Assembly (NCBI GenBank): GCA_965285935.1
Contig: OZ260661.1
Location: 102,610,001 to 102,674,000 of the forward strand
Source of the DNA: Ophelia neglecta
Lineage: Eukaryota
Length of the DNA: 64,000 nucleotides
Reading direction: 5' to 3'
Positions 12,901 to 46,972 of the stretch are shown one piece after another (the stretch's first letter is position 1; the number at the start of each line of letters is the position of its first letter). Made by a program: the position numbers and the translations under genes. The notes under the pieces are model-generated. The model was given only the letters and a program-made list of their open reading frames with translations. It did no database searches and was not told where the DNA came from.

Positions 12901-15899
12901 AAAAAAAATTGTCAGTCGACAGTGACTATTCTATATTACAATGACCAGAAATTATTCAGGGAAGTCTTATTGGCCAAGGTTAAATGTCAAAATATATAGG
13001 ATGTTAGTTTTGTTCCAACGATGGTCTTTGGTGATAGATTATTGCCTGCTTATATATCTGTGTCTAGAAAACGAGGCAGATATTGTTTATTCTGCGCATA
13101 GCATTAAAGAATAATGGAATCATTTTATGAGGAATGTAAGTAACAGGTCCTACAAGGTTATTCATACTGTCCTACAAGGTTATCCACATTGTTCCATAAT
13201 CAGCGGCAGACTGATCGGTCGAAGGCAACAGAGTCACTCAGAACGTAAACAAGCTAAATGCATACCAGATGCCAAATCGCCCGACCCATTTTGATATCTA
13301 TATTTTAGTAAGTTTAATGATAACATCTACACATAAGTGCCACACTGGGAATGGTTGACCTTTGTCTTGAAAACGGAGATTGCATTATATCATTTATCCA
13401 TTAACAAACATTTAGAATGCATCCTTGAATCTGATTGATTAAGTATTGGTTTAATGAACAAATCAATACCATTGCAGCAACAGAATTGAATCCGAAAATG
13501 TTTATAATTGTAGCTATTCACCCAGGATGTGTGGTTGTTCTGGCTGTTCAAATGTGGTGTAGTACTGCTCGAAGTGAACGCAGGTTTCGGATTTTAGTGT
13601 TTACAAAAAATATATATAATGAGTTCTTTGTATGAATAGGAACAATGGTTAAAACTCAAGCGGATGTGACACTTACTATAGAGCCCGGCTATAGAGCTTA
13701 CACCTATTCGGAATTTGTTTAATACGAGCTAGTTGAATTATAACATTATTCAAAGAGATTCTCGATCCCTTCCCTGTCTTGAATAACATCGTATTCACCA
13801 GAGGGTTGCCTAGCGTCGATATACAGACAAACACCGCTCTCTTTTCTGATCGTATTTTCTGATTGGAACTGTCTCTGTAGGTGCCTGTTCGTGTCCACAT
13901 AATCCAAGCAGAGTTGGGTGTAATAAGATTATCTGCCTAGTCGAGTTAGGAAGTATCTGGTCCAAAGTTAACAGAGCTCACGGAAAGATTTGATTTGTGA
14001 CTCGCCGTCTGCCCTTTGTTGAATGATAGTGGTTCAAAGCTCGTAAGATGCTCTGGCATCTTTGATCACGTAGTTCGTTCTTTGATGTTTTTGGCGCAGT
14101 TAACATGATTTTGTGACCAAATCAGAGTCAGCAATAAACTGTACAAGGGGAAATTCAGCATTTCATTCTCGAAAAGTGCCTTTTTTTTGGTATTAAATGG
14201 TTTATCCTTTACTCCAAACTTCGACAGTTTTTATGACCATTTTCCCACCAAGCATATTGGACTTTTGTCGTCATTTTCCTTGCTAATTCATCATCTGTAT
14301 ATCTCAATGCTTCCAAATACCTAAGTATTTATATCCTTTTACAGCATATGCCAAAGGTCTATGTTAATTTTGGCAATTATCGAATGCAGTGGCTCCAAGT
14401 GTAGGGAGAGAAGGCCTCGTTTTCAGATGCATTATAAGTGTAAGATACAGAAGGGAATGGTGGCTTTGATATGAGCGCGCACAAAGGGCTACGGGAAACC
14501 CACCTTCTAAAATCTATAGAATATTGTAATTGAAATATCATGAATGAGGTGAGAGATTGCTTTAATGGCACGTGATTGCCCATGCAAAGCATGGGATTTC
14601 TGAACGAATTAAGGCCCTTTTCTTGATTGTTGATTTCGATTTGTCTTTCGGCTGTTTAGTCACGTTCATTTTATCAGGCTTTAAATAACACACTTTTTCC
14701 GTGAGTAAAGAGTTCCCCCATTGAGGGAAATAGTTATGGGATCTGGTGCCTCGAGGGATTATGCCAAAGGGGATAAGGCATTTGAAGCATATGAAATGAT
14801 GGTGCCCTACCAATAATGGCAGTTCCCCATATTTTCCTACATATATTAATGCAACATCAATGAAATTTTAAGTCATTCTTGAGTTATTTCTTTGAGACCA
14901 AAACTCTCTTATCTCACATTTATAAAAGAGCTTAGTCCATCGTGGATTCCAGGGTTCATTTCATCTTTGTCCTACGTCTGGACTATTGTCTCGTTTGTTT
15001 TGCGCTTTGACTCACATTATGGCAGACTTTCTTTAATTACTTGTTAATTTGGTACAAGCTTATTTACATTTAGGAAACCTGGGGTGGACTCTTGGGCGCC
15101 TGCACTTGTCGGTTCCTGATAATTCCAGACGGAGTTCATTGGGAATTCCTTTATTGCTGCTTTTGCTTTGACTTTCAGGTATTAAGCCTTGTTTTTTATT
15201 CTAAGGTAAAACCTACCATTCAGTTAAGGCTGTGATATCCTATCATTGCTTGGCCTTCTAATACAATTGATCCAAGTCTGTATTCAAGGAAATTATTCAA
15301 GAGTCACCCGCTAAACAAGTAACTTTTAACTCGTGTGTTTTCATTCCTGTAATTTATGTACATTTTAAGTAGAACATAGCTTTGCAAATGTATTGATGTT
15401 TGTAAATAGACAGTTTAAGCACTCTCTCTCTCTCTATATATAATATAACACTTTGTCTTACTTCGTTAATCATCTAGCGTAATACTATAAGCTTTAGTAT
15501 TAAGCTAATGTATGTTAATTTTCATATGAGCGGATGCTTCTTGTTAAGGCGTACTCTTTAAAAACTTGTTTAACGAGGGCGTGTCAGTGTATTGTACCGC
15601 AGGACAATTTCTTATTATGTATGAAAATCATACAAAAGCAAAAAATTATATATTGTTTTTATAATTCTTATTTTTCCAATTAACAACTTAAATATAACAT
15701 TGCAAAAATTATATATTTTTATTAGTTTGACGGCACCGTGCACTTCGGAAATATGAAAAGGAGGAATTGTAAAAAAGAAATTTATCAAATGGTCTGAACA
15801 GTTTGGCTTTTTAAATATACAATGCAGATTGTACTTAATACTATTATGCTTTCTTGTGCCACTTCTAGGATCAACTGACTTCTGTCATCTTTAAATAAA

Positions 15900-18800
15900 A
15901 CAAACTGAGGAAAATATTTTCACTAGATTTCTTTTATATGAGTTAAAGTAATTTACAATTTATTGCAAAATGGTGGAATATTGCAACGACGTTATCGTAT
16001 AATACAAGATGGTAAGACGCCAGTTCTTTTTAATGCGAACTTCAGAAGAGAGAAATCGATTTCAGTAAGTGAGTGATCTCGTCGTATTTACACATTGACA
16101 GGTGCAAGAAACTACAAGAACATAGTGTATATTTAAATACAACCGCAACCTTCAAATGTTCCAATTAGTAGCGTGAATTACATATGTTATAACCATCAGA
16201 ACACTAAATCTTTCATGCCAGATCTTCATCCTTATTTATGGTCATAGATAACAGTATTTATGATAAGAGTAACTGTGCTACATTAGCATCGGAAGACAGA
16301 AATGTTCGATACCCTTGAATCTGATAACAAAATATCCATGTAAAAGGTACAAGGCAGATAACTAGCAAAAAACATCGTTTTCCAATAAAAATGTCTTGCT
16401 ATTATTATAAATTAATACACTATTTTACCTATCAGGAAGAGTACATAGTAAGAAGGAGGTTTTTAAAGACAAGCTATGTAAAGTGTACAGAAGTTTTGCG
16501 AAATACTAATAACAATCGACAAAGCTCAAGAGAGCAAAATGTGCACTCATCCCATTTTAAATGACTTCCAACTTTAAATGTTCAAACCCAAAATTAATAA
16601 GCCGTACAGTGTTGATTACGTGAAAACAGTTAACTTGAGCTTACCTAATATAAGTGTTAACAATTCAAGATAAGAATTCAATTACATGATTAACAACTGA
16701 CAGGTGCGAGGTATATCTGTATATATATTTATATGTAATAAGATTAGTAAAAGATAACATGTATTTTGATATGATAAAACATTTCTTTTCTCAGTAACCT
16801 TACATCATTTCGAGACGTGAGCGTGTACCTATACTGCAATAGTGGCAACACTATAAAAAACTGTGTCGAATAATAATATTTACAAGACTCGACGTGCATA
16901 TTGCATAGTAAAAAAGTTATAACTGTACAGGAAAAAGTCATTAATGATGAGCTTTGAAAAGCCGTGAGCAATGAATTCTCAAACATATAATTAATTAGTA
17001 GGTATTGCATATGAAATATATTAAATGTTGGCATACAGCTACAATAATATTTAATGTGTCACTTATATGAACATCTAGTTGTGAACACATGAAGAAAAAA
17101 ATTGCTCAAACCCCTCCAGCTAAACTTGCTACCGGTCGACTCAGTAGAAATAAGCATACGCCCTGTGTCTCATATGTATTCCAGTTTAATGTAAGCATTA
17201 ACATTTAGGAATGGGACACATCAAGGCATTCTACATAAAGTAATGTAAATCAATGGTACACTACACCACGCTTAGATACGTTACTGAATCAAGCCTTACA
17301 AAAAGAGATCTAGTGCCTTAAAACACTACTCGGTCTGGTTAGGGAAGCAAACATCTACTGAGGCTAAATACGAGGCGAAGTTGAATCTAGACAACAAAAC
17401 ACATGCTTGTAGGAAATAGCAATGAAATTGCTTTTTCATGAAATGGGGATGGTCGTTAATAACCATGTACAATAACCTTGCTCTCCTCCCCCCCCCCCCT
17501 CCCCTCAGGATCCTTGTTTCATTAAGAAGTGGAAATATGATGAAGGTGTAAGTCAGCACTTTTGGCTTTAAGCAATCCAATGCTGCTGATCCAAAGGCTA
17601 AGGGGGCTCCCGATTTCTCAATATTTAAACGACCAACCAAAGGTGGGGACCGGAACTGGTTCACCCTAGAAAAGTTATTGAACGCCCAGACTGCTGCCGT
17701 GGATGCATTCATCCTAAGGCAGACGGCACCAAAATAATGACCAAACTACCGGCCGGCGTGATTTTTACCAGTCTCCGGTGAAATATCTTGTCATCGCCCA
17801 TGGTCACCATAAAACATAATGCATCGTGGTAATTTAAAGGCAGTGGGGACAGCAATTGTTCTCTATTGCATTTGACATGCATCTGTCACTTCACTTCCCC
17901 AAAACTGCACACCGAAGCGTGTTACAATATATAATGTATTACATCCTCAATGTCAATGGAGGAAAGCAACATGGCACACAGCCCAAGGCTGGAAGATGTA
18001 TAAAACGGTATTACCACAGACAATATTGATCGTCGGGGTAGTGCTTGACATAACATTCATAGAAGAACAACATTGCTGTTTTCTATTTGCTGGCAATCGG
18101 GTCTCCCATCATACCAGGAGACTTCAGTCCGTTACTGGTGAATATGGGCGTCGATAAAGTCGATTACTGTGCCAAAGCCACTAAAGTCTGGGCCAATATG
18201 GGTGCCATCTTATTAAACATCCTCTTCTAGCAGGAGAAGGACCAGAAAGGAGTAGAGACACGCCTATGTGTGTATGAAGCACAGCCACACAGAATCACAG
18301 TATATCTGACTTTGTGGGGTTGCAAAGCACTGCAACAAATGGGCACTTAAAGAGGTTCTTCGTGTACATAGAAATACAATTAAAGATAAAAGATTGAGTT
18401 CATTCTTCCAGACCCCACTGGATAGGCAGTTTAGCATACATAAGAGGGACATGTCTGTGTTATGCCTCAGTATGAAAGACTATAAACACATTCAAGTGTT
18501 AACGCATTCCCTATACCAAAGTTAAGTAGTCTGAGTAAGACATTCTAATACCGATCCGAACCATATCACCAACATACTTCTAATGGATTCCTTGTTTGAT
18601 TTCACTTGCAGTTTCAATATTCACACAGCATAGATCAGTAATTGCAAATAGAACACCAGGAGCAATACAATTTCAAAAACACTATTTATCTTATGAACTG
18701 CAAAATAACAAGACCTCCATTAGATAGGATAGCTCCGGTTTGTGATCGGTTATCATATAATCTCAGTGTGGTGATCATGCAATTCCAAGTGAGTCATTTC

Positions 18801-21608
18801 AATTATATTAAGTGCGTGGTGGTGGTGCAGGTTGTGTTGGAGGTGGTGGTAAAAATGGGAATTGCACCAACATACCAGCAATTAAATGACAATGGCAACA
18901 AAAGGAGCAATCGTTCATCAACACGTAGATACCTGATATTATGAAGTGATACCATTAAACATACAATCATCCGAGAAACTGTCCTATACGAGGCATTTGT
19001 GTACCAGGACTTCTTCGTTTGAGCAAATATAAATACCTTAGAATATCAGCGAAATTGTGCGCATCCACCTTCTGCATTCAGCTATTGGTGGGTTAACGTA
19101 GCTCACGCTACCAATCACAAGTCAAGCGAAGAATCAAGCCACAAAAAATCACGTGGCTTTCGGTGTAGTTGATTTAGTCACAAATGACTAGATTGCTTTG
19201 AAATATGCAGACATTGCATGTCCGTAGACACGGCACACAATAACGCCGGCTGACACTTGCCGGCGTTCTTCGCCAAACATCAAGCACGAGGAACGAAAAG
19301 GGACATGAACGTGATTTGTGAAAGCCAGGCAGCAACAGGGCCAAATGCAAGTGTGGCTAGCTTCACCTCATTCTTAGACCGCGGTGCTCAGGTGTTTTCA
19401 ATGCTCGGTATATTGCGCATTTGGTAAATCACATCCGGGGATTAATTTACATCGGATTTGCCGCTCAAAAAATGAAAAACTCTTATTTTTGACCAAAACA
19501 TGCCAGAGTTGATATATCATGCTTTAAAGCGAAGGCGAAATTCTGAGAATGTAGAAATACCTACGCTTTTAGTGGAAAATACAGATATATAATAATTTCA
19601 TTGTTTATATAAAAAAATAGTATGATAATTGTAGTCCACAATAAGAGTGCCAAAAAGAGTTATATTCCCTTATATGATCATAAACTGTGTTTCTTCCCCT
19701 TTAATGATGTGTTCCAAGCATTTTAACCGCACCGGATAAAGTTTATATTAGGCATATAGTTGCATTTGAATATGATACTGCCATAGTCACTGAGCCACCA
19801 TGGATAACTGACTGACAAATGCACCATAGCCTTGGCCACAAGCTGCGGCACTATCGTTGTTCATTGCAGAATGCAGGATTAAAATCCTCGAACATTTCGA
19901 CCCATCTTTACTAGGCGCGCTTCCCTAAAGTGCCCTCTTCTTCAAGAAGCGTTCGGCCACATGCTTTAGAGATCTCTACAAGGAGCTAAAATTGCACGCA
20001 AGTGAACTGGCCACTTATTATATAGTTCCTTGTGTGAGAAGTCCCGAGCCTGGAGCCTGGAACAATATATTACCGTATTGCTCGGTTAAAATAGGGGACT
20101 TGTCACATTGCCGAGAATGTGTATTCCCTGCTCGCCTGATTTCTGTGGTTGGAACGGCACGAACACAGACATGGCTCCGATGGTTTTACTGATGAGAAGC
20201 TATTGATTGAGACTAATCAGCCGATATAGGGCCTTAAGTGGGAAGCGTCTGCTTAACAACAACGACTTGCGATAAACATGGGACGTAATGCAAGGGAGTC
20301 ATCCACGGATAAGTATCCAAACTGAGGACAGCCTTATATTCAGGCGACATTCCAATATTCAGTTTCTAAACCAGTGAGAGTAAACATTTGTCGGTATAAT
20401 AAAAAAGGCTTTCCTCGGTGCTCAACGTCTGACATATTCAGCGTATATCTAATATATTATCATACATTATTGCCATGTATGATGTTCAGCCGCAAACCCC
20501 TGGGTCTCCCTGCTCCCCCTCGGCTATCGGGAGGCCCAAATACATAACTTAAATAAGACCGGACTCCATATTATTTTTTGTAGGTGGACCTCAATGCAGC
20601 ATAAGCAAATTAAACAACACACGACAATGTCATGTGCTTCATTCATTCACTACACAAAGGGAACCCCGCATACACGTGCTTCAAACAGAATCTTACAACC
20701 AGATCAAAAATAACAACAACAGAAACAACAACACAACGGCCGAATCAGGCTCAACGGATGAGAATGAGACGACCGAGTACGTTTGTCGCTGCCGAATTCA
20801 CACACGCAGACACAATTTCATCGTTCAGCACATCGCCTTGTACAACATCTCACATACCAACTTGCACGCACCTTACACACCATTTTACGTGTTATCATGT
20901 GTACGGGGAGCACAATTCTGTGGTGATGAATAATTTAATTATGCTAAATGTACAGTTCACTACTACCACACGTTAAAGAAGGAGCTTCTCGTGTCTTTTG
21001 AGCGATAATGCCAGTTAAATAAAAAACAGGAATTTATACATCGCAATAATATGATATCAAAGAAAATTATATTAATGGTGAATAAAGACCTAAAATGGAA
21101 ATTAGTAGTTTCTAGAAAAAACAATTAAGACTTTAAAAGATATAAGACTTAAAATATATAAAATTCTTGGAACAATTTTGACTTAAAATCTTCGTAGTTA
21201 ATTAGGCCAAGCTCTCAAATTTCGAAAAGCAAGAACAACCTTATCTTAAACAATGAAATGAAATTAAAGGGAGCCACGTAAATCCGCGAAGAAAGACGTG
21301 ATCCTAAATAAAATAAGATCTGATACTTTTAAAAGTGGTAAGGAAACTAGAAAGTATAAATTTGAATATTAGTATTTATGCAGGTAGAATGCATAACACG
21401 TGTATTAAAAAGGCCGAACGTGAGTGTCATTAGAGAGGTGCACATACAGAAACTGGCAAATAGGTGTCTATAGTAGTATAAAACTGGAGCTCGACCAATC
21501 ATTATTGGTCTGACACAGAGAAGATGCTGGTTTGTCAGTGCATAAATTACAGCTCTGTTCCAACGAGGAGCACTCGTACAGGAGTGCCGACGTCGGGAGA
21601 GCCGAAAC
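15900..21608 (-). other. Probable long 3' UTR of Kv copy A
   Basis: U-rich on the minus strand, with blocks conserved against copy B. AATAAA on the minus strand at 15959-15964 (AATACA in copy B) lies close to where paralog homology ends. Confidence 0.5.
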
Positions 21609-22991
21609 TTACGCACTGATATACCCCCTTCCTTGGTCATGCCTGTAGAAGTTGTTGAAGTTCGCCACTACCACGGGCACGGGTAAAGCAATCGTCAGTA
21701 CTCCTGCGATCACACATAGGGCACCGACTAATTTGCCCCAGACACCAACAGGTGTGACATCGCCATAGCCCACGGTCGTCATGGTCACGATGGCCCACCA
21801 AAAAGCTCCTGGTATGGAAGTCAGCTGGGTGTTTTTTTCTCCGGCTTCTGCGTAATAGGCTGCGGAACTGAATATCACCATGGCAACGATGAGGAAGAAG
21901 AAGAACATGCCTAACTCGCGCAGGCTCGTCTTTATAGTCAATCCAAGAATGCGTAATCCTGCTGAATGCTTTGACAGTTTGAATACTCGGAAGACTCGTA
22001 GCACGCGTATGAATATGAACGATCCACTCTTTTTGGCATTCTCACAGTTTCCTGCAGTTGACACTGTGATTAATGTAATAAAATAGGGCAAAATTGCCAA
22101 AATATCAAATATATTCATAATGTTTTTGCAAAAAGTGAACTTCGAAGGCGTTGCCACCAGTCGAAGAATAAATTCAATTGTAAACCACGAAACACAGACC
22201 GATTCAATCATAAAGAACACGTCATTGTAGTTTGGCTCCAGGTGGTAACTTAGCCCATTGTCCGATGTAACATTTACACATTGATCTCGAACAAATGTAG
22301 GCAACGTCTCTAGGCAAAAGTTCACAATTGATATAAGAATGCAGGTGACAGATATAATCGCAAACACTCTGGCGGCTCGCGAGCTGTCCGGCTCCTCGCA
22401 AAATAGGTACAATTTCCTTTGCCAGTCCTTTTTGGGGAGTATTTTCACCTCCTCCATAAGGAATCCTTCTTTCTCTTTGTAGTCGTGTATAGTTTCTTCG
22501 CCAAGCTGGTAAAACTCGAGTTCCTCGAGGAAAATGTCCTCGGGGACCTCGATCGGTCTCCGCAATCGGCCCCCGCTCTGATAGTAATACAGAATCGCTT
22601 GGAACGAGGGCCGATGTCGGTCGATGAAGAACTCATTTCGTCGAGCGTCCCAGAACTGTTTCCGCTTCATCGGGTCACCCAGGAGTGTTTCCGGAAAGCG
22701 GTTGAGCGTGCGCAGTTGTGTCTCGTAGCGTTGGCCACTGACGTTGATGATGACTCTCTGGCAACCGGCCTTGATGCAGTCGTGATGCTGGTCCAGGATT
22801 TCCAGACAGGGCGGGGGTTGTAACTCCACCTGGTGCTGAGGGGTGCCACCACCACTCCCCACATTCTCGTATTTACTGCCGCGAGAAGACAAAGAGACAC
22901 GACCATTAGAAAAATTAGTTAAAGGAATCAGCGTGCCCTCAGGGCCAACAATAGACTTACGGTACTGTAGCAGAGCTGCGTTTATAGCCAT
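21609..22991 (-). CDS. KCNA: Shaker/Kv1-family voltage-gated potassium channel alpha subunit, copy A (460 aa, intronless CDS)
   Basis: T1 domain (RVIINVSGQRYETQLRTLNRFPETLLGD...YYYQSGGRLRRP), S1-S6, S4 RVLRVFRVFKLSKHS, pore TMTTVGYGD, S6 gate ALPVPVVV. The ATG at 22991 (cacaagATGG) matches the paralog start MAINAALLQYRKS. The track start at 23024 is a non-ATG extension. Confidence 0.96.
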   Translation of the reverse strand: MAINAALLQYRKSIVGPEGTLIPLTNFSNGRVSLSSRGSKYENVGSGGGTPQHQVELQPPPCLEILDQHHDCIKAGCQRVIINVSGQRYETQLRTLNRFPETLLGDPMKRKQFWDARRNEFFIDRHRPSFQAILYYYQSGGRLRRPIEVPEDIFLEELEFYQLGEETIHDYKEKEGFLMEEVKILPKKDWQRKLYLFCEEPDSSRAARVFAIISVTCILISIVNFCLETLPTFVRDQCVNVTSDNGLSYHLEPNYNDVFFMIESVCVSWFTIEFILRLVATPSKFTFCKNIMNIFDILAILPYFITLITVSTAGNCENAKKSGSFIFIRVLRVFRVFKLSKHSAGLRILGLTIKTSLRELGMFFFFLIVAMVIFSSAAYYAEAGEKNTQLTSIPGAFWWAIVTMTTVGYGDVTPVGVWGKLVGALCVIAGVLTIALPVPVVVANFNNFYRHDQGRGYISA

Positions 22992-25261
22992 CTTGTGAAT
23001 CACACAGTAGAGAAACACACACAATTAATAGCCACAATCCACTGCCTGCCTGCCAATAGACCTTTAGTCTCTCCCTCATGTGCAGTACAACATTTTACTG
23101 TGTCCACTGGGCGCTGAAACAAATCAGTCAATACCAGGGGCTGAAAATAAATGACCAATTCCACAAGTGAATTTCTTCGGATAAATACATGCGATACTGT
23201 GTAAAAATATACACGTTTATGAGCCGGGGCTTCTTCGTGTACTTATATATACGCAGTCAACACCTTATGCAGTTCTGAAAGATTTCCTGTAACGCCAGAA
23301 AAAGGTATTATAGTGATGTGTGTGATGCGGAGAGAGCAGCAGACGTCCGGCGGCCATACAGCTGAGAGCAGTCCAACATCCTTCAATAACAAATGGAGTT
23401 TATTTCAAACAATGCTTAAAAACAGGGTAATATGTATGATTAACACGGCTAAATGTAAAAAGGTATCCAGTATTAGGTGGCCATTATTGACAAAGGAAAT
23501 AGTTGATTCTCGGAAATAGCTCTACGTAAGACCACGAACTGTGTACAAGGTACGATTCGATTACGAAAGTCAGCTTCATTGCTGAATCGTTGCGAACACA
23601 ATGCAATCGACTGGCCTCCAGAATCGCATAAAACACGTAATTCGACCAATTCCACTCTTTGCCTTGCTGAACAATAATGCATTGGTAAGGCCCTCAGTGA
23701 GACCCGTATTGAAGGTGATGTAGCACGATATCCTATGGCAGATGACAAACAGTATGGCGGCTGTCACACCGAAATCAACGGCTGCTCCCGAAAGCATGTT
23801 GTCTGTTGTGCTCATCGCGCATCCCAACTGGCGCCACCAAATGCCACGGCCTAACCCACGCTCTATCGTCCGTCCCCAAGGACGAGGCTACTTTAGTGGC
23901 AAGCACACTGAACCCTCCAGACTGTGTGTTACTCAACTGGCGTGCCTTTTGACTCCTAATTAATCCTATTTATATTGACGAGTCGAGAGTTGGCCTACTG
24001 GATTTGGCTTAATTATCTGTTTAAGCCAGACATGCTAAATCCACGATCGACTTTCTACAGTAACTGTTTCATTCTCACTAACATTACATGCCTATTGTTA
24101 TTCACATAGAAACGATTAGTTTCCTCGTCCTGTTCTAAGATTGACCGACTACCAGTTAAAAGGTGGAAGAGTCGGAAAGAGGTCAATATGGGAGATACCT
24201 ATCGAAATAATGTGAAGGTTTCAGGCAAAACATGTCCAAGTCCCACCACTCCATTGATCAGATCATGACGCGACCATTTGCATATTACGAGCTGACTGCA
24301 TTCGTCTTTCGACATCAATGCCAGAGACGTGGTCAGACAGCTATAGGTTAGATAGCGAGCCCTTCTAACCAGTCGAGCGCTTAGCCAAAATACACTAAGA
24401 AACAAATAACGGACGGCAAATAGATTTGCCTGATCTGAACAGTCGCCTCCCTCTTTAATGACAGGCAAGCTATATCTTGGGCGGCCATCAGTTTTTGTCA
24501 TTATTTAGTCCGAGTTCAATGCCAAGAAAAGAAGATTATTCTACAAAGATTATCCTTATATAATATCAATATAGAAATCGTTCAATCCAACTGGACCGAA
24601 CCAATATTAAGGTCCTATTACGAGTCAAAATCAAAAAGTAAATAGGAGCTGCGCTTTTTATGTACTCCTCACTCATCAGTGACTTAACTTTAGAATAAAT
24701 TATGTGACCTTCTAAAGGTTAACGTGGATTTAAATATCGACACCATTTTATATTCATTTGCAATGGCATTAACCTTTTGTAATAAGTGTTTAGAATACAT
24801 TGGCATAAATCACTCGGTGCAAAGATTAAAAAACGATTGTTTCCACCATGACAGTTTAAATAAAGGATGTCCTCCCTCAGTGTGAGGATGGAGCTTGTGG
24901 TATTTCTGTTACGTCAGTAAGTTTGCCGATCATGCTGCTGCAATTTATAGAGGAAAACTTGTCAATTTGCAATATGCTTAGCAGGTGTATTGCACAAGCG
25001 ATGCGACAAAATAGCCCGTATTCATTCAACAAAATCTAAATATTATGTAATCAAAGTTGATCAAGTAAATTGTCGCCATTCTTTACAACAAAACATCCAC
25101 CAATAAGCATTAGTGTAAATTTAATACTATATTCAGTTTGCAGCTGATACCTTTCTTTTCGGCTTATTCGCACTCATGCAAACCAACTTTTGCAGTAGGC
25201 CTAATAGGTAGTTAAGTGATGCGAATTTGGTTACCTATACAAGACTTCATACACAATTCAT

Positions 25262-25284
25262 AAAAAAAAAAAAAAAAAAAAAAA
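25262..25284 (+). repeat. Poly(A) run of 23 nt between the two duplication units
   Basis: Direct observation. Confidence 0.9.
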
Positions 25285-25509
25285 TAACAAAATGAAAAGC
25301 AAAATAATTTTTGTTTTACTTCAAATCTGGCAAACCTGTTTACTTTAAATTCTAAATATATAGAAAAAAAGAAAGGAATTGTAACTTATAAGGTTTGATT
25401 AATTTCAGCAATTGATGTACCCCAAATTTAATTTATACTGTTCACCTTCTTAGTTCATGCTATGAATTAAAAATTTGTTCGGTCTTATAGAGTGTTGAAC
25501 AAAAAATAA

Positions 25510-28500
25510 AGAAGACATTTACACTAGATTCATTTATAGGAGTCAATGTAATTTACAATGTATTGTAAAATTGTTTTGCAACTAGATTATATCATAAAAA
25601 CCACGAGTGTAAGACGTCAAGTTCAAAAGAAAGAAATCAATTCATCAAGTGGCTCATCAGGTCTTATTTACAATTTCAGTGAGGCTTACTCCAAGAAACT
25701 ACACCAACACTGATTGTATATTCAAATACAACTGTAGATTTTAGGTCTGCCAAGCATCGGCAGCGTGCATATGCTTTTGTATTATTGAAATGGTAATATT
25801 CATCCGATCACACTAAGCATTTCATTCAAGATTGTCAACAATATTTATAATTTCCAATGAAAAGTTTTATCATAAGAAGAAAACTTTGCTAATCTATCAC
25901 AGAAAGATATAAATACTCGAAACCCTTGAATTTATACAAAAAAATACAACTTTAAGTTATTAAACAGATTTCTAGTATAAAACAAGTAATTACATAACTA
26001 ATGGATTGCTAAACATCCAATTAAGAATACATCTTAAACTATCAGCAAACGTTTGAACTTACGAAATGATATTTACGAGGCAAAAGTTGCCCAGTACTCA
26101 TATTAACCAAAATTAATCACAATCGACAAAGTTCAAGAGATCATATTTAAAGTCTTTCATTTAAACGTTAATGGCGCACAACTTTAAACGTACAAATTCA
26201 AGGTTAACATGTAATATATTTGTAGGATAAAACAGTTATTTACTGGTTTATCTTACAAGTTATCTTGAGAGGTGAGCGTGCATCTATACTGCAACATCTG
26301 CGACACTACAAAAACCGTGTCGACTAATCATATTTACAAGATTCGACGTGCATGTTGCATAGTAAAAAAGTTAAAACTGTACAGGAAAAGTCATTCATTA
26401 TGAGCTTATAAGAGCCGTGAGCAATGAATTCTCAAACATATAAATAATTAGCAGGTATTGCATATAAAACATTTTAAACGTAGGCATACAGCTACAATAA
26501 TATTTAATGTGTACATCTAGTTGTGACCACATGAAGAAAAAAATTGCTCAAACCCCTCCAGCAAAACTTGCTACCGGTCGACTCAGTAGAAATAAGCATA
26601 CGCCCTGTGTCTCATATGTATTCCAGTTTAATGTAAGCATTAACATTTAGGAATGGGACACATCAAGGCATTCTACATAAAGTAATGAAAATCATGATAA
26701 CACGGTTAGATACGCTACTGAATCAAGCCTTACGAAAAGGGGAGTTACAAGGCCATGAAACACTACTCAGTCTGGATGGGTATGTTAATAAGCACTGAGC
26801 CTAAATACGAGAAGAAATGGATGCTAAGCTACAAAACGCATGCATACAAGAAAAGGTTAATGGAAAAGCCCCTCTGTAAAATGGGCATAATTTTCTCATA
26901 ACTACGTAATATAACCCTACTCTGTAGCTATAAGAATTATTTTCTGACTTATAAATTTAGCCAGATGAGCCGTTCTACCTTGGATCAACCCAAAATTGTA
27001 TGACCAAATGTAAAATGTGACGCTGAATATATCCATAAGCAAACGACCAAGCAGAGGCCCGGTCTGTACATTGTACAGCACTTGAAACCCGCCGATTTAG
27101 AGAATGAAAATCTCCAGCGGAGGCGGCAATATTCCCAAGAAAGACGGCACCACCGTATTGTACAAGCTATCGGGGTGCTGCACCAGTCGACGGTGATGTA
27201 TTTTTGTCAACGCTCTTGGTCACTTTAAAACGATGTGCATTTCGGTAGTTTCCGGTCATTTGGCACAGCAATTTTTATTGCGTTTGCCATTCGGCAGTAT
27301 ATGTCACTTCCCAACCCCGTACGTTTTAGTTTGTTACAATATGCAACGGATTTAATCCTCATTGGTAATTGAGAATGCAAAAAATAGCAAACAGCTCTAT
27401 GCGAGCTTGCACAGCTGATGGAAGGTGCATAAAGCGGTATTGCCACTGACAATATCGATCGTAGGACCAGTGCTTGACATAACATTTATAGAAGAACAAC
27501 ATTGCTGTTTTCCTATTTGCTGGCAATCAGGACTTGCATCCCAGGAGATTCTCCAGTCCGTTACTGGTGAATATGGACATCGATAAAAGTCTATTGCTGT
27601 GCCAAAGCCACTACAGTCTGAGCCAAGATGGTTGCCACCTTGCTGGGTCTCATCATCTGGCAGTAGAATGGCCAGAAAGGAGTACAGACTCGCAGGCTTG
27701 TGTGCACAGCCACAAAGCAGCACAATATATCTGACCTTGTGGGGTTGCAAAGCACTGCAACGAATGAGTGCTTGAAAAATGTTCCTTATATACATATAAA
27801 TGCATATTAAAAAGCAGAATACGATTTCAGTTCATGCTTCGAGAACTGTTTAGAAATGCAACATAGCTTACGAAGGAAGGGGCATGTGTGTATTAATTAT
27901 GCCTCAGTTTGAAAGATTATGTCATTCAAGTTTTGGCCCTAACGCATACCAACTTTATTTAATAAGTAGTCTTGGTTAGACATTCTTATGCCAGCCCGAA
28001 CCATTCTTTCAACGTAAATTTGGAAGGGGTTCATCTTTTAATTTTAAGGCAGTATCAGTTGAGACTAGTCATTTTGAATGCAACATCTGATGACGTATCA
28101 TCACATTTTCCAGAACAGAATTTATCATATAAACTGCAAAAATTAAAATAAACGATTAACATGGACCACTAAGGTCGAGAGAATGGCTCAGGTTCGTGTT
28201 ATCCTATATAAAATAATCTCAGGGCGGTGATCATACAGTTCTAAGTGGATCATCTCAATATAAGTACATGCATTAAATTGGGAATTGCACCAACATTTCA
28301 GCAAAAAATTGACAATGGCGACAAAAGGAGCAATCGTTCATATCAATACCCAGATATGCTACCTGATATAATGAAGTGATACCTTTCAACATAAATCCTC
28401 TGATCATCTGTCCTGTTCGAGGTATCTTCATACGAGGATTTCTTCTTTTGAGCAAATGTAAATACCTTGGAATGTGTCTCGAAACTATGGGCAGCAAAGT

Positions 28501-31500
28501 TCGCAATTTTCATTTGATGGGCTAACGTGAGCTTTCATTAACAAACTAAGAATAATGCCACATTAAACAAAGTTATACTTTTGAGGTGACCGTAAGACCG
28601 GCGTTTCTTGCGACACATCAAATACGACGAATGAAAAAGGGAAATGAATGTGATCATGTCTCCCGAGAAGCAACAGGGTCTAGTTTATGTGACACCATTG
28701 TTAGTAACAATTGTGTTCACATGTTATATATAGGCTTTTTTGTTTTGTTTACCAACACACAACTTGGGAATCATCCGCGACTGAAGTGCCGTTTCAAACA
28801 ATCTGTACCCGTCCAAAAGAAGTAAAGGTTCATTATTTCACACCAATCTTTCCTAAGTTAATTTGAACACTGTAAACGAGGCCAACCTTGAGGGAAATAC
28901 AAGGACATAACTATTATATTGCTTATTAAAATGCAATATAATTATTTGGTATCCGCAAAAATAATACGAAGAAAAGATGAAAATATGCTAGAATTTAAAT
29001 ATCCATCATTTCGCTTTCATTATTAATTATCTTTTGCCTAGAATCTAAACGCTCACTGAGAAAAAACGAACGTTTGGCGTATGATAGTTTTTCCCAAGAA
29101 TAGGAATCCGCCGGAGTCATTGAACCATGACTAACCCTATCTATTGTCTATCTTATGGTTGCCGACCAGATGCTGCACTAGCGGAGAATCACACAATACA
29201 GGTTGATAAGCCCGGGAGGCATTTCGGTCCATCTTTATGCCGCGCGGTTCAAAACGTACCCAAAACCAACATGCATTACCAACATGCAATGATCATTTCG
29301 GGCGGATGCGACCCCTATCTGTTTTTTGTCTCATTTACAGCTGTTTAGATGGGTGAATTTAACCGGACTCTAAATGGTAGTCAGCGGAATCGGCTGGTTG
29401 CTACGCTATTAGCTTATCATAACACGGTGATTTATAGATTAACATTATCAAATATGCGATCAAAATACGTTGACGTTTTGAATATTTTATGATTTTGGTA
29501 CGATAAAATGCACTGATACAAACAAAATACGGCCTAATTCTTGCCTAATAGGTATAGATTTCACCGCGGAAACGTTTCCCCTGCTTATAAAATATTTTTC
29601 TATTTCGGTAAAATTACAGACTTGACTCAGCCTGATCAAGGTTAAACAAAAGTGAACTATTGTTTGAGACTAATGAGCCGATCTGCAGACGTACACCATG
29701 ACTGAACATGGAAAGTCATGATTTCAAACAATACATTGATGTTACCTAACAAAAACCATTGAATTTTATGCAATAATTCCACTGGCAGGAATATGTTAGG
29801 ACTGCCAGCTACTTTAAATCTAGACAGAACAGCTGGGAGAATATGAAATATCCTAGAATTGTCAGCCATTTTAATGGTTTATTTATATTTTGCTTAAGCT
29901 AGTATTATTTAAGGTTTCTGCCGCCTCACAGACATTTTATAGCCTGCATTTCTGGCTAACTCGGAGAATTATAGGTTTCACCTTCCAGCCTCACCTTCGA
30001 TATCTCTATACCCAGTGTGGAATATATCCAGTTCGGAATTTACTTTGACCAGAACGCGCAAGTTGACATATCTGCCGAAAGGAGTGGCTAATTTGTTCAT
30101 GGTGTACTCGTGCATGGATGTAGGACATGAGAAGTGCCTGAAAACAGCGTCCTGGCAGTAAAGATGGACCGAAAACGTAAGGGCGTCATCTACGGATAAG
30201 CTACCTAACTACCGACTTTTTAATTTGTGCACAGAATTCTAATCTAAATTTCCTAAACACAGTGCATACACTTTTATCAATGAAATGAAACGAAGGCTTT
30301 TCTCAGCGCTCAATATCTAACATATTCAGCGTATATGTAATATATTATCATACATTGTTCCCATGAATGATGTTCAGCCGCAAACCCCTGGGTCTCCCTG
30401 CTCCCCCTCGGTTATCGGGAGGCCCAAATACGTTACTTAAAGACCATCGGACTGCATAAATAATGTTTGTTGGAAAACATCAATGCATCATCTACAAATT
30501 AGGCAACACATGACATTGTCATGTGCTTCATTCATTCACTACAAAATAGGATCCCCCCATGAGCAGATTCAAACTGAATCTAACAGCAACAAGAAACAAT
30601 AACAACAACAACAACACAACGGCTGAATTAAGCTCAACAGAATGAGAATGAGACGACCGAGTTGTGTGCGTTTGTCACTGCCGACCTCGTACACACAGAC
30701 ACAATCACGCAATTTTCACACCACCATGCAATCTTATGCACACCCAGACATACACCATCTTACCGGCCATCGTACACACCATCACACGTACCATCTTGTA
30801 CGTCGTTATTCATAACATCGAACGCACCTTCTTACAAACCGACGTGCGGGGAGCACAATTCTGTGGTGACGAATAGACTAATTAAGCTAAATGTATTTCA
30901 CTGCTATCACACTTCCTTAAAGAAGGAGCTTCTCGTGTCTTTGGAGCGTTAATGCCAGTAATATAGTAAACAGGAATTTATATATCGCATTAATATAATA
31001 TCAAACTATATTAATGGTACATATATACATGTATATAGACCTAGAGTTGAACACAGTTTCAAATTGAATCAACCGAGGCTATCAAGGGGAAAGAATATAA
31101 AATGTATAAATAATACAGAACTATTTGAAGTTTGATATTCTCATAGTAAAGTCGGCCAGACCTCAAATAAATGAAAGAATCTTTATCTTGGACAATCAAT
31201 TCAGGGAAGCTAAAACAACAACAAGCAATTCTCGCGAAGAATACTTGTTCCCCTAGGCATATTGACAAATGAGTTGAGCCGGAATGATTTTTTGAAAATG
31301 TGTTCTCATTCGTAGCGGTAGTGAGGTTAGAAGGTTTAAATTTGGATATTAGTATCTGAACTAAGAATGCATAAAGGTGGATTTAAATGCTGATCGTGAG
31401 ATGTACCATTAGGGACGTGCATAGGTCTAGGAAACTGGCAAATGGATGTCTATAGTAATATAAAACTGGAGCTCGACCCTTTATTATTGGTCAGACACAG

Positions 31501-31590
31501 AAAAGATGCTGGTTTATCACTGCATAAATTCAAGCTCTGTACCAACGAGGAGCACTCGTACAGGAGTACCGACGTCGGGAGAGCTGTCAC
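25510..31590 (-). other. Probable long 3' UTR of Kv copy B
   Basis: Paralogous to 15900-21608, with the same conserved blocks. Confidence 0.5.
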
Positions 31591-32970
31591 TTATGCACTA
31601 ATATACCCCCTTCCACTTTCATGCCTGTAGAAGTTGTTGAAGTTCGCCACTACCACGGGCACGGGTAAAGCAATCGTCAGTACTCCTGCGATCACACATA
31701 GGGCACCGACTAATTTGCCCCAAACACCAACAGGTGTGACATCACCATAGCCCACTGTCGTCATGGTCACGATGGCCCACCAAAAAGCTCCTGGTATGGA
31801 AGTCAGCTGGGTGTTCTCTTCTCCGGCTTCTGCGTAATAGGCTGCGGAACTGAATATCACCATGGCAACGATGAGGAAGAAGAAGAACATGCCTAACTCG
31901 CGCAGGCTCGTCTTTATAGTCAATCCAAGAATGCGTAATCCTGCTGAATGCTTTGACAGTTTGAATACTCGGAAGACTCGTAGCACGCGTATGAATATGA
32001 ACGATCCACTCTTTTTGGCATTCTCACAGTTTCCTGCAGTTGACACTGTGATTAATATAATAAAATAGGGCAAAATTGCCATCATATCAAATATATTCAT
32101 GATGTTTTTGCAAAAAGTGAATTTCGAAGGCGTTGCCACCAGTCGAAGAATAAATTCAATTGTAAACCACGACACGCAGACCGATTCAATCATAAAGAAC
32201 ACGTCATTGTAGTTTGGCTCCTGACGATAACTCAGCCCATTGTCCGATGTAACATTAATACAATGCGATCGTTCAAATGTAGGCAACGTCTCTAGGCAAA
32301 AGTTCACAATTGATATAAGAATGCAGATGACAGATATAATCGCAAACACTCTGGCAGCTCGCGAGCTGTCCGGCTCCTCGCAGAACAGGTACACTTTTCG
32401 TTGCCACTCTTTTTTGGGAAGTATTTTCACCTCCTCCATAAGGAATCCCTCATTCTCCTTGAAATCGTGTATCGTTTCTTCGCTCAGTTGGTAGAACTCG
32501 AGTTCTTCGAGGAAAATGTCCTCGGGGACCTCGATCGGTCTCCGCAATCGGCCCCCGCTCTGATAGTAATACAGAATCGCTTGGAACGAGGGCCGATGTC
32601 GGTCGATGAAGAACTCATTTCGTCGAGCGTCCCAGAACTGTTTCCGCTTCATCGGGTCACCCAGGAGTGTTTCCGGAAAGCGGTTGAGCGTGCGCAGTTG
32701 TGTCTCGTAGCGTTGGCCACTGACGTTGATGATGACTCTCTGGCAACCGGCCTTGATGCAGTCGTGATGCTGGTCCAGGATTTCCAGGCAGGGCGGGGGT
32801 TGTAACTCCACCTGGTGCTGAGGGGTACCACCACCACTCCCCACATTCTCGTATTTACTGCCGCGAGACAAGGATACAGGGCCATTAGAAAAATGAGATA
32901 AAGGAATCAGCGTGCCCTCAGGGCCTGCAATAGACTTACGGTACTGCAGCAGAGCTGCGTTTATCGCCAT
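31591..32970 (-). CDS. KCNA: Shaker/Kv1-family voltage-gated potassium channel alpha subunit, copy B (459 aa, intronless CDS)
   Basis: Same domain architecture as copy A (T1, S1-S6, TVGYGD, PVP). Uninterrupted ORF from an ATG in cacaagATGG context to TAA. Confidence 0.96.
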   Translation of the reverse strand: MAINAALLQYRKSIAGPEGTLIPLSHFSNGPVSLSRGSKYENVGSGGGTPQHQVELQPPPCLEILDQHHDCIKAGCQRVIINVSGQRYETQLRTLNRFPETLLGDPMKRKQFWDARRNEFFIDRHRPSFQAILYYYQSGGRLRRPIEVPEDIFLEELEFYQLSEETIHDFKENEGFLMEEVKILPKKEWQRKVYLFCEEPDSSRAARVFAIISVICILISIVNFCLETLPTFERSHCINVTSDNGLSYRQEPNYNDVFFMIESVCVSWFTIEFILRLVATPSKFTFCKNIMNIFDMMAILPYFIILITVSTAGNCENAKKSGSFIFIRVLRVFRVFKLSKHSAGLRILGLTIKTSLRELGMFFFFLIVAMVIFSSAAYYAEAGEENTQLTSIPGAFWWAIVTMTTVGYGDVTPVGVWGKLVGALCVIAGVLTIALPVPVVVANFNNFYRHESGRGYISA

Positions 32971-35001
32971 CTTGTGGCAAACACACTAGACGCACACACA
33001 CATACACACATACACTACCAACAACCACCATTAACTGCTTGGCCGTCAATAGATCCTTAGCATCTTATCATTTATATTACACCAAAGCAACACCTTTGCT
33101 CGTCGCTGAAACAAACCAATCATTCCAAGATGCTGAAAAAATGGTACATTGTAATCAATTTCACAAGCCAATTTCTTCGGATAAACAGATGAAACACTGT
33201 GTGAAAAATAAACATTAAAGAACTGGGTCATATTTTTGTGGTTATATCAGAAGTGGACAGCTGACTGGGTTTGCAGTTCTATAGGGCTTTCCTGTAATAT
33301 CAGAAAGAGGCATGAACATAATTATTGATAATTCCCAGTAACAGTAAGCAGCAGGTGTCCGGTGGCCACTGAGGTGAGAAAAGTCCTTGGCTCTTTAATA
33401 ACAAAGGTATTTTATATCAAACATTGGCTGAGATAGAGTAATTAGTTTGATGGGCAAGGTGAATATGAACAGTATATCCAGTAATAAATGGCCATCAGTT
33501 CAGCAGAAATTGAATCCACATATGATTGAGAATAGTGTGTGCCAGCTGCGAGTCACGTCAATTCTTTGCTCCATTGTAAAGAACAATGCAGTTTTAATTG
33601 CAGATGCAGATGCGATTTACCGCCGGGTCTGCATAAAACGTGTCACGTTGCCAATTTCGCTTTCCGCTTGATTGTTACATAACGCGTGGGTAGGTTTATC
33701 GACGTGTCCGGTATGGACGGGGGTATAGCACGAGCTCCTCTTGTTCAGTATTGCGGCTTCCACAACAGATCCGCTAAATACTCCACAAATGGCACTGTCA
33801 GCCATGCTCAATACAATCCAGATCCGGCGCCACTGTGTGACACGGCCTCAACCGGCCTCTACCGGCCGTCTGCCATGCAGGAGCAGGCTTCTTCAACAAA
33901 GACCAAACCAAACCTGCCAGGGCGTTATTCAACCGCTATCGCCAGTTGTTCTACAATAATTATTCGCATTAATGCTGCACAAGTTATTTGGTTTAGGAGG
34001 TTTTATCCACATTAACATAAACTTATTCCACAAACCGGGGCTTGATGATCTGTCTTCACACATGAGTAATTCTTCATCATGAACGCAGTCTAATTATTAT
34101 TCACATAATAGCTTAGCCTCTCATTACATGACCTTCAGTAAATGGTGGTTTGGTTAGCAGTAAGTCTAAAATGGGAGATGCTCGTCTGAATAATTCGCCT
34201 TGAGAGCCACAGGCTGTCCGAGTATAAAGACGCAGCATTCCCTTGATCATAAATATCATGAAACGAAGATTTACAAAAGGCAAGCAGCCTCAGAATTCGT
34301 CTTGCCAGACCAACGCACGGGCGTCCTATGACAGGGCTGCCATGCAGAGGCCGTCCTGGGAGTCGAACGATTTCAGTTGGCTAAAATGGACACAGGCGCC
34401 AATAACAGACTGAAGGCTTCAACAGATTCGCTTGATTTGAGCGATTGCCGCCTTTCCTATAATGAGTGGTATGCTATTTTTAAGCCACCTGCAAACTATT
34501 CTGGTCACAGTTGCCAAGCGCAGATCAAATAACACGCGGTCCACGGTAGGTCGCGAAGCGTCCAGCTCACACCCGTATGCTTTGGCCATAAGTATGCCAA
34601 GGCAGTGGTCGTGTGCGTTTTTGCCTTTAAGATGGATTAAGAACAATCTAAAATATGTCGCTAAACGAAACTGACTTTATAGGGTAAAGCCGGAAATGTT
34701 AAAAGCGAGCTTGGCAACACTTCTGGAAGAATATTAAAATGAGAACGGCAGTGCTTTAACTATCATAATATCGCGAGAAAGACGTATATACGAGAGTCAT
34801 TAAAAAAAGCGAAGAAGCCTACTTCATAAAACATGAACTGTGCAAGGTGATACAATAGAAGGATAGAAAATAAATTGTGCAGAAAGGTGAAAGGAGAGAA
34901 AGGCCACCACCAACCTTGCACGAACACTGAAGAGGCACTCTGAGTAAGGCAGACGACAAAGATGGGGAGATCCGGCCGAGGCTGGCTGAAGCGACACTTA
35001 C

Positions 35002-35560
35002 CTTCGAGTCCCGCGCCCTAGGCCCATAAGACGGTGCACTTCTCGATTTGTCGCTCCACAACTACTCTCAGGGTAGTCCGAAGCCTTTCCAAAGGCAGAC
35101 GTCTGCAGTCCAACAATCATGACAAAAAACGCACTGCCCAACTAGCCATAGGTAAAATGTCGCTACTGTCAAGCGACTGACAACCCCCCTGATGAAACAG
35201 GAGGGGATCTCCAAGAGGCCAATTTCCTCATAGGCGTATGTGAAATTCACATTGATCGCGAACATCAATGATAAACATCCACAAAGCTACTGTAACGGGT
35301 CTTTGTCGCGCCCTACACATCCTTACAGTCACCCGGCTACATCGACCTGCCTTTCGCCATCCGGCGACCACTCGTGAATAAAAGCTCACTGACACCGTAG
35401 CCAATACACAATACACAGCTCTGCCGTTCCCCTATTTTCGTCCGACGTAGATCCGAAACGATCACCAGAAGGGAAAACGAGACCGACCACAGAATAAAGC
35501 CATACTTGCGAGCGCCTGGCTGGTTACTGCACTTCAATATCATACCAGCCAATCATAAAA
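35002..35560 (-). promoter_or_regulatory. Candidate promoter and non-coding first exon of the Kv locus
   Basis: Locally GC/CpG-rich. CCAAT motif (agccaatca) near 35547-35555. Consensus donor GAAG|GTAAGT on the minus strand, intron starting at 35001. Paralog-conserved candidate acceptors upstream of both CDSs (ttacag|g at 33291 and 23286; ttttcag at ~33133 and 23141). Confidence 0.5.
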
Positions 35561-44900: not shown

Positions 44901-46403
44901 TCAACGTAGTTATCTGTGCTTGGTAAACACATCACACTAATTGTCTTCCCCGTGAGTGTTTTCTCCTGCCATCAGTAGTTTGATGAAAGGGACAATTTGG
45001 CCTAATAAATGTCTCATTAGCGTCAACGCAGCTAGTGTAGATGATAAATGGACTGGATTTCTAGATCCATAACGCCACGTGTATTTGCAATACATATCAT
45101 GTACATGCTTGGAACTGAGAACAGTTTCCCAGCAATGGGGTTGCTACGCTGTTTTCAGCCAACCCGCAACAGTAATTTCGTGACAAAACCGCTTATTTGA
45201 TACCATGAATTATGTCCTTGTGACTGTTGTTATAACAGCAATAGAGTACCAGCTCTGAATTGGCGTTGAAATCACGCTGGGCAAAGGTTTCCATTTGAGT
45301 TTCATTTCCGCTTTGTTCTTTGCAGATAATAGACTATCTGCTCTGCTGAAGATCCCCCGAGAAGGTCTACTCAGAGGCGGCATTGCTTGTCAACCTATTG
45401 ACGACAAAGCCATCAGACGAGAGTAGCATTGAATATTGCGTGATGCTGCCAAAACAAACCGAATGCAATCCTTCACTAAAAGAAAGAATCAATGTCAACA
45501 ACTTGTAAAACGAACGACTATTCATCGAAATAGACAAGACTTCGCTAATATTCATGCATGTTCTTGGCCACACGACAAATGATGAAATGAAAAATGCAAA
45601 TGAGTCGCGTTAGTTCGCTAAGTTTGATTGGATGGCCATGGGTACAGGACGTGAGATAGATAGTTTTAATGCCTGGTTAAACCTGACATAGGTGCTCTGA
45701 TACGTATTATGTCTGAGCGCTATTGATTCAAAGCACACTTTCTTGAGGTTTTGGCCCAGCCTGTGTGTGTACAAGGGCGCCACAGGAAGATATCTCCCCA
45801 TCAACTTTCTCAGATTATGTAACGACTACAATGTTCTGAATATCCCGCCATTTACCACCAATCCATTGTGAGCCTTAGAAGAACCGACGTTTTTTTTTCA
45901 CTCCAATGATATCAAAGTGATTAGACAGATTCCATCGGGCGTCAGAAGCGATTCATATCTGCAAGAAAATCGCCCACCTCATGCAAAATGATGTATACAT
46001 TTGCATATAAACTTCAAGGAAAAAGCCAAAAGAACCCCATGGTTGGAACTGTTCTTCCAATGCAAAATCGATTAGAAGCTGCTGTAACACTCGTCAAAGA
46101 TAAAAACTACAAAGGCACAGCCAGCTTTTTAAATGAATGACACAATTATTCATTCCAGACAATATCTTTATATTTAAAATACATCTTTTTATCATTTTGC
46201 TCATTACACATGCGAAGATCAGCAAACCGATGTTTCTCACATTGAAAAGTCGGTGTTTGACCCATTTTGGAACTTATGCTGTCTTTTTCTAAGAATAGAA
46301 TAATATTGTCATTTCATAACTACTATAAACATTCATGAGCAAGGGTTTTGCAAATGAACTTCCTAGCCATTACCAAACCAGCCAGGCCGGTGTTGTCGAT
46401 ATG

Positions 46404-46972
46404 AACTAGAAGACAGCCCAGGCCCCTGGTATTTCCTGAGGGTTTACTCGAAGACAGCCCAGGCCCCTGGTATTTCCCGAGTTTGTACTAAAAGGCAGCC
46501 CATCCCCCTGGTATTTCCCGAGTGTGTACCAAAAGGCAGCCCAGGCCCCCTGGTATTTCATCAGTGTGAACTAGAAGACAGCCCAGGCCCCTGGTATTTC
46601 CCGAGAGTGTACTAGAAGACAGCCCAGGCCCCTGGTATTTCCCGAGTGTGTACCAAAAGGCAGCCCAGGCCCCCTGGTATTTCATCAGTGTGAACTAGAA
46701 GACAGCCCAGGCCCCTGGTATTTCCCGAGAGTGTACTAGAAGACAGCCCAGGCCCCTGGTATTTCCCGAGAGTGTACTAGAAGACAGCCCAGGCCCCTGG
46801 TATTTCCCGAGAGTGTACTAGAAGACAGCCCAGGCCCCTGGTATTTCCCGAGAGTGTACTAGAAGGCAGCCCAGGCCCCTGGTATTTCCCGAGAGTGTAC
46901 TAGAAGAGAGCCCAGGCCTCTGGTATTTCCCGAGAGTGTACTAGAAGACAGCCCAGGTCCCTGGTATTTCCT
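46404..46972. repeat. Minisatellite, ~41-bp unit (actagaagacagcccaggcccctggtatttcccgagagtgt), ~14 copies
   Basis: Direct tandem repetition (period 41 at 46741/46782). A variant 3-unit block repeats at 124-nt spacing (46527/46651). Confidence 0.96.

Follow-up and report, generated by a model that had tools for sequence, protein, structure and literature searches.

In Caenorhabditis elegans, unc-60 (ADF/cofilin A/B) has a common first exon followed by two tandem homologous downstream series, and splicing to both has been proven, as described in PMC3469465, which also covers the cholinergic locus ChAT/VAChT, whose two products have a common first exon. In Drosophila, the 3′ variable regions of pip, CG42235 and PGRP-LC consist of terminal cassettes that are tandemly duplicated and mutually exclusive and that follow a common set of 5′ exons (PMC6191721, PMC9013439). 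Here, we describe a locus of comparable layout in the annelid Ophelia neglecta. The window analyzed is a stretch of 64,000 nucleotides (nt) (GenBank assembly GCA_965285935.1, contig OZ260661.1, positions 102,610,001 to 102,674,000), and it holds two tandem, Shaker-like voltage-gated potassium (Kv) channel open reading frames (ORFs) on the minus strand, copy A and copy B. We propose, with a probability of roughly 0.6, that they belong to one Kv gene with three N-termini and two alternative last exons, the T1-S6 channel body and the 3′ untranslated region (UTR) having been duplicated in tandem. A first-pass annotation had suggested a shared exon and two terminal exons chosen by splicing and polyadenylation; the single upstream exon and the duplicated terminal exons are borne out here, whereas its details of the leader and of the acceptors are not.

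Results

Copy A (21609–22991, 460 aa; its own N-terminus, then T1 and S1–S6) and copy B (31591–32970, 459 aa) are intact, 95% identical in amino acids with 23 differences, and part of a ∼9 kb tandem duplication. Self-alignment defines unit A (15897–24475, minus strand), comprising 1.5 kb of upstream sequence, the ORF and a conserved 3′ region, and its partner, unit B (25498–34480, minus strand). Between them lies a unique, AT-rich spacer of 1.0 kb (24476–25497, with a run of 25 A near 25261–25285) that aligns with neither flank. The upstream homology ends at 24473 and 34477, in agreement with the ∼1.5 kb noted earlier, and all ten 200-nt windows starting at 24500–25400 gave z≤2.3 against the sequence upstream of B. 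With a spacer of only 1 kb, the sequence upstream of copy A spans no more than 2.5 kb before reaching the 3′ region of B. The coding sequence (CDS), 3′ UTR and acceptors had been described as duplicated, and the upstream exon as apparently left out. The upstream exon is indeed present once, but the unit is much larger on its 3′ side than had been noted. An assembly artefact is an unlikely source of the duplication, because the unique flanks of both copies are read-covered and most flank blocks are only 63–80% identical between copies.

Both ORFs match Pfam BTB_2 and Ion_trans above cut-off, with a T1/BTB domain followed by a six-transmembrane (6TM) ion-transport domain as in Shaker-related Kv channels. 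Both translations contain TVGYG, which we take to be the potassium selectivity filter, and a basic segment that we take to be S4. Named matches are Shaker or subfamily A, and the closest named relatives are annelid: Capitella (76% identity), Dimorphilus (73%) and Ridgeia (70%). These orthologs (ELU04025.1, CAD5119543-45.1 and KAK2184898.1, respectively) are unnamed hypothetical proteins, and literature searches found no functional study of them. A and B are the only close copies in the genome, the next paralog being 60% identical. A quick tree of 44 rows, built without P0041, P0045 or Kv2–4 references, places A and B as sisters with an SH-aLRT (approximate likelihood ratio test) value of 95, a sisterhood that gene conversion can also yield.

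Upstream of copy B, 520 nt outside the duplicated unit, the phase-2 donor AAG/GTAAGT at 35002 closes an exon that we call E1 (35002–35120, minus strand; 119 nt from its ATG, 39 aa beginning MIVGLQ). Counting the minus strand of the window, AGGTAAGT is present twice. E1 is matched once in the genome, and no remnant of it was found upstream of copy A (local DNA score 22 versus a shuffle mean of 22.9); the donor is single-copy and lies upstream of B, as the first-pass annotation had it. The strong donor that it failed to see at 24500–25500 is indeed lacking there, the region holding only weaker donor-like sites such as TAG/GTAACC (25235) and AAG/GTATCA (25151).

The exon had been regarded as a non-coding leader, but it encodes a conserved N-terminus. 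MIVGLQSS opens P0044, a Ridgeia model, as well as P0151 and P0152 from Dimorphilus. Scored against the first ten residues of the Dimorphilus and Ridgeia N-termini, the ATG at 35120 reached 76; the runner-up among 5578 ATGs in 134 kb reached 46 (mean −7.9, standard deviation 12.2). As judged by homology, E1 is a coding exon for a conserved alternative N-terminus. In Dimorphilus, DgyrCDS8143 and DgyrCDS8144/8145 share one body and differ in whether the N-terminus is the read-through form or MIVGLQ, switching exactly at S-KYEN; from the annotation and its consecutive identifiers, we read these models as putative isoforms. Joined to either Ophelia body, E1 yields 461 aa with no internal stop.

Where one shared upstream exon had been assumed, two more coding exons lie beyond the window. 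A third N-terminus, ending in NWK before KYENV, is found in P0142 and in P0125, the latter a cluster-mate of the nearest relative; it maps to a 102-nt coding exon of phase 2-2 with one genome match, E0 (G000:C1:102676405-102676506, minus strand). E0 is 2.4 kb past the right end of the window and 33 kb from copy B. A 47-nt coding exon, E-1, lies 19 kb beyond it (G000:C1:102695967-102696013, minus strand), so that the two stand 31 and 51 kb further upstream than E1. E-1 plus E0 joins in frame, with no internal stop, to either body. Since E0 is so distant from B here, yet adjoins KYENV in the short contigs of P0125 (1,959 nt) and P0142 (5,270 nt), the latter are probably spliced transcripts. No exon preceding E-1 was located, and an E1 word search, HMMER on 50% representatives, a word search with P0142 residues 1–45 and the Atlas revealed no more carriers of E1 or E0. 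At 37380 on the minus strand of the window, a consensus donor (GAG/GTGAGT) closes a 53-codon, ATG-initiated phase-2 frame for which no homolog was seen; it is possibly a fourth N-terminal exon.

The splice partners of these exons are predicted inside the ORFs, where the first-pass annotation missed acceptors stronger than the 5′ UTR sites it had chosen. In copy A (22875–22925, minus strand; first exon base 22875), a branch-point-like CTAAT at −34 and 15/20 pyrimidines precede CAG/T; in copy B (32857–32907, minus strand; first exon base 32857), CTAAT stands at −31 with 14/20 pyrimidines before CAG/T. Both sites are in phase 2, directly before the KYENV codons. Just past them, A and B are almost the same for ∼70 nt; copy-specific sequence is found at codons 161–200 and 234–251 and in the 3′ UTRs. 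A search for the KYENV codon pattern in the window and related loci gave 10 matches, 9 of them in Kv copies; the tenth, an opposite-strand chance match without a YAG/Y acceptor, was rejected. An internal YAG/Y with 12–15/20 pyrimidines was found in all nine of these annelid Kv copies and CTAAT or CTAAC at −31 to −37 in each of the six read-through copies, while three of the nine (the second copy of locus L039, L041 and L073) have no in-frame Met before the acceptor. A three-feature acceptor filter, picked after the sites had been seen, passed 6 of 1746 minus-strand YAGs, both internal sites included. In addition, each copy has its own ATG and a 38-residue N-terminus that overlaps the branch point and pyrimidine tract of the internal acceptor. 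The ATG of copy A is in a strong context, ACAAGATGG.

We propose that the upstream exons E1 and E-1/E0 would splice in phase 2 to the acceptor inside either body. Transcripts from these distal exons would end in B, or would skip the exon and poly(A) sites of B to end in A. With each copy's ATG-initiated read-through form as the third N-terminus, up to 3×2 subunits would result. The predicted splicing of E1 and E0 to the internal acceptor of B is very probable; a further joining of both to A, with B passed over, is rather likely. From relatives, we infer that all three N-termini would be used with this body. Different N-termini would be likely to alter Kv inactivation or targeting.

Other annelids carry comparable duplications. 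L039, and L040 together with L041, each hold two same-strand Kv copies that, according to the tree, come from a separate duplication. The downstream copies in L039 and L041 begin at the acceptor, without a proximal start, and the comparison of their sequences, 96% protein identity at 51% third-position identity, indicates that they are strongly constrained. In the 4.9–5.0 kb between the copies, conserved non-coding blocks are present, and none of the 21 and 26 donor-like sites marks a conserved phase-2 coding exon. A downstream copy that lacks its own start but has an acceptor, in a separate duplication, favors exon sharing. Apparent E0 matches in L039 (position 229) and L040 (position 3390) were rejected, having no donor and no extended match. 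A third group has three different bodies, 75–86% identical, whose longest contigs are equal in size in three cases (44,572, 1,139,551 and 2,444,693 nt), a coincidence that points to triple arrays. In P0142, one of these bodies is joined to E0.

Several observations weigh against shared use of the upstream exons. The acceptor of B is nearer to them than that of A, and poly(A)-like AATAAA motifs of B at 31485, 29883, 27959 and 27279 must be bypassed to reach A. No read was found that crosses a junction into copy A; three sequencing runs from one sample gave DNA-like coverage over introns and flanks, with no splice joints. That A has retained the acceptor is weak evidence, since the site is part of the coding sequence and the copies arose recently; because A is expressible from its own ATG, its constraint does not require shared exons. 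The end of alignable sequence may not be the breakpoint, and E1 may have been copied and then lost in the spacer. Among relatives, E1 and E0 were not located in the available 1.0 kb (L039) or 10 kb (L040) upstream of the pairs, so that sharing there rests on absence, and a poorly conserved private exon could have been missed. We found no relative in which one upstream exon is joined to two different bodies. Finally, a search of limited regions for competing docking/selector RNA pairings of the PGRP-LC type found none, its best duplexes scoring inside or close to the range spanned by three shuffles, with one common 9-mer; such pairings may be less common in 3′ regions, as stated in PMC6191721/PMC9013439.

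The alternative that survives best, although we consider it unlikely, is that copy A is a gene of its own, a partial duplicate whose sole product is the read-through isoform, driven by a proximal promoter in the duplicated 1.5 kb, while E1 and E0 serve only B. The first-pass annotation inferred that channel choice would not be made by separate promoters. Both copies, however, retain an N-terminus that starts from an ATG of their own, so each may have a proximal promoter. The strong context of the ATG of A and its constrained N-terminus (nonsynonymous rate dN 0.048 and synonymous rate dS 0.227 versus B) favor such a gene, as does a GC/CpG-rich stretch inside the unit in both copies (23501–24000, GC 0.49, 29 CpG; 33501–34000, GC 0.48, 28 CpG). 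A GC-rich segment had been thought to exist only once, outside the units (35001–35500, GC 0.51, 32 CpG). There is none at 24.5–25.5 kb (GC 0.32), but the equally rich stretches inside both units show that the claim of a single occurrence was not right. Furthermore, by default, the nearest acceptor and the poly(A) signals of B would capture distal transcripts. However, the blocks 0.5–1.5 kb upstream are the least conserved of nine measured (63–64% identity between A and B), the internal acceptor of A is intact, and in another lineage a downstream copy without a proximal start stays constrained.

Far less probable is the original proposal, in which the exon at 35002 is a shared non-coding leader spliced to 33291/23286 or 33132/23140, before the complete ORFs. 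The candidate 5′ UTR acceptors do exist in both copies, with these as first exon bases, and the acceptor-like sites are conserved between copies; those of A (23113–23290, minus strand) lie at 23286, 23140 and 23113, with B partners at 33291, 33132 and 33105. But besides the coding capacity of E1, joins of E1 to 5′ UTR acceptors create upstream ORFs of 43–46 aa that stop before the channel ATG in all four cases, and none of the candidate 5′ UTR acceptors has the CTRAY branch motif found at the internal acceptors. A different non-coding leader further up, using the donor-like sites 35327 or 35390, is possible for the read-through isoform.

It is also conceivable, at still longer odds, that copy A is silent and has been kept intact by gene conversion from B. 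Two identical CDS tracts of 281 and 238 nt, compared with the 63–80% identity of most flanks, do point to gene conversion. Nevertheless, the unconverted codons 161–200 still favor synonymous change (12 versus 5 nonsynonymous), and the 3′ blocks are conserved as far as the poly(A)-like end. At the 23 differing residues, that of outgroup P0001 is kept by A in 12 cases, by B in 8 and by neither copy in 3; with the matches so divided, both copies have changed. As measured over the whole CDS (dN 0.024, dS 0.133), copy A is under constraint. The body differences sit in the T1-S1 linker, S1-S2 loop, S3, turret and C-tail, with no difference in S4 or the pore filter; S4 of both copies presumably lacks the outermost Arg of Shaker-type sensors. 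Least probable of all is that the acceptors take a trans-spliced leader: acceptor-like sites without a strong nearby donor do lie upstream of B (a donor pattern search of 32971–34480 found none), but right-phase cis donors exist, and PMC7854359 describes Dimorphilus as having no spliced leaders, ‘similar to other annelids’.

Past the stop codons, homology between A and B continues for ∼5.7–6.1 kb and ends just after a common TATAAA and U-rich tract; five of six 3′ blocks are 72–94% identical and the remaining one 65%. Candidate poly(A) signals at this end in A (15933–15964, minus strand) are AATAAA at 15964 and TATAAA at 15938, with U-rich sequence after them. The B partner of the latter is TATAAA at 25538, and, judged by motif, a U-rich tract is found at both homology ends. 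We infer long 3′ UTRs, each copy with its own predicted end, which fits the block conservation. A non-coding block at 16900–17300/26354–26734 is 94% identical, with just these two matches in the genome, and is possibly a conversion tract or a strong 3′ UTR element. The AATAAA at 31485 (minus strand) lies ∼100 nt after the stop codon of B and is missing at the matching place in A; it may specify a short 3′ UTR specific to B.

On the minus strand at 21480–21680 and 31460–31662, the last codons and stop pair with the proximal 3′ UTR in a long hairpin (z of −6.4 in A and −3.8 in B). This is not general: a tail-to-UTR duplex beats all 100 shuffles in one of 12 loci and ties in one. In L039 (2576–2681) and L041 (440–546), a 3′ UTR block after the upstream copy is 92% conserved and partly complementary to its last codons. 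Where probable transcripts of relatives are compared with genomic calls, C-terminal changes are explicable as A-to-G in 4 of 5 cases for P0125 versus P0001 (8 of 19 overall) and 3 of 3 for P0142 versus P0141; A-to-I recoding of the C-tail is a possible reading of these sequences. Both copies score above cut-off for Rfam K_chan_RES, an editing signal of potassium channel RNA (21660–21773 and 31642–31755, minus strand), a match that may come from S6 coding conservation; the position that we take to be equivalent to Kv1.1 I400V appears to be Val already in these copies.

Other clustered Kv matches in the genome lie at G000 C5:61.97 Mb, C7:100.20–100.23 Mb, C1:103.04–103.06 Mb, and C12 at 5.97, 7.03–7.06 and 55.02–55.06 Mb. 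Several neighboring S1–S6 exons among them have no T1 match listed alongside, and these clusters could be additional shared-exon arrays. Pfam detected no other proteins in 72 of the 90 stop-to-stop frames of the window; the other 18, which were repeat, N-containing or Kv-overlapping, were left out. A genome search that skipped common words found no repeat-family match for the spacer or the 34.3–36.3 kb region. Tandem repeat arrays at 8001–9500, 46402–46975 and 57100–57495 are unrelated to the Kv finding.

Discussion

Should the distal joins prove real, the alternative last exon being exchanged would be an entire voltage-gated channel core. The locus would then represent an intermediate state, in which each duplicate is an independent ORF and at the same time a cassette of a single gene, and other annelids show the next step, in which the cassette's own start is lost. 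Annotation would miscount such loci, taking them for intronless paralogs, and would overlook their N-termini. We tentatively extend this reading to annelids at large, where it is somewhat more doubtful: a Shaker-like gene may repeatedly have been made combinatorial, its terminal-exon body duplicated two or three times, separately in different lineages, downstream of N-terminal exons used in common. Under the same tentative reading, splicing would make sets of N-terminus × body subunits, which A-to-I editing of the C-tail might recode further. A branch point and an acceptor would lie within the coding sequence, and conservation of the protein motif ‘L(S/T)NG...S’ would be a side effect of their presence.

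Literature searches, with most subscription papers and supplements outside their scope, returned no report of Kv terminal-exon duplication or of annelid Shaker/Kv1 splicing like this. The design of shared 5′ exons and duplicated 3′ cassettes is already known from unc-60 and pip, and the version with a Kv channel body was not found in these searches. As in those genes, single upstream exons (E1, E0) precede tandem same-strand homologous cassettes, each with a frame-compatible acceptor. The likeness to unc-60 extends to the distal product, which there requires skipping of the proximal series, as described in PMC3469465. In contrast to unc-60, however, Ophelia has two upstream exon routes, its cassette is a single exon with the whole channel body, and each cassette has its own start overlapping the acceptor; splicing to both is predicted here, whereas in unc-60 it is proven. 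The products of ChAT/VAChT are unrelated proteins; here the shared exon is coding and the bodies are paralogous. The shared exon of ChAT/VAChT is non-coding, and E1 does not fit that type.

The Kv1AnID N-type inactivation domain has a conserved Glu at position 2, as given in PMC3634772; E1 has Ile at this position, and the proximal N-termini have Ala. The annelid orthologs are closest to the present case, being of the same subfamily, with the same S-KYEN switch point and, in the Dimorphilus and Ridgeia models, the MIVGLQ N-terminus. Drosophila Shaker and bilaterian Kv1 resemble it in combining a Kv1-type T1 and 6TM with alternative N-termini. Splicing of Shaker varies the ends around one core, whereas in Ophelia the core itself is duplicated.

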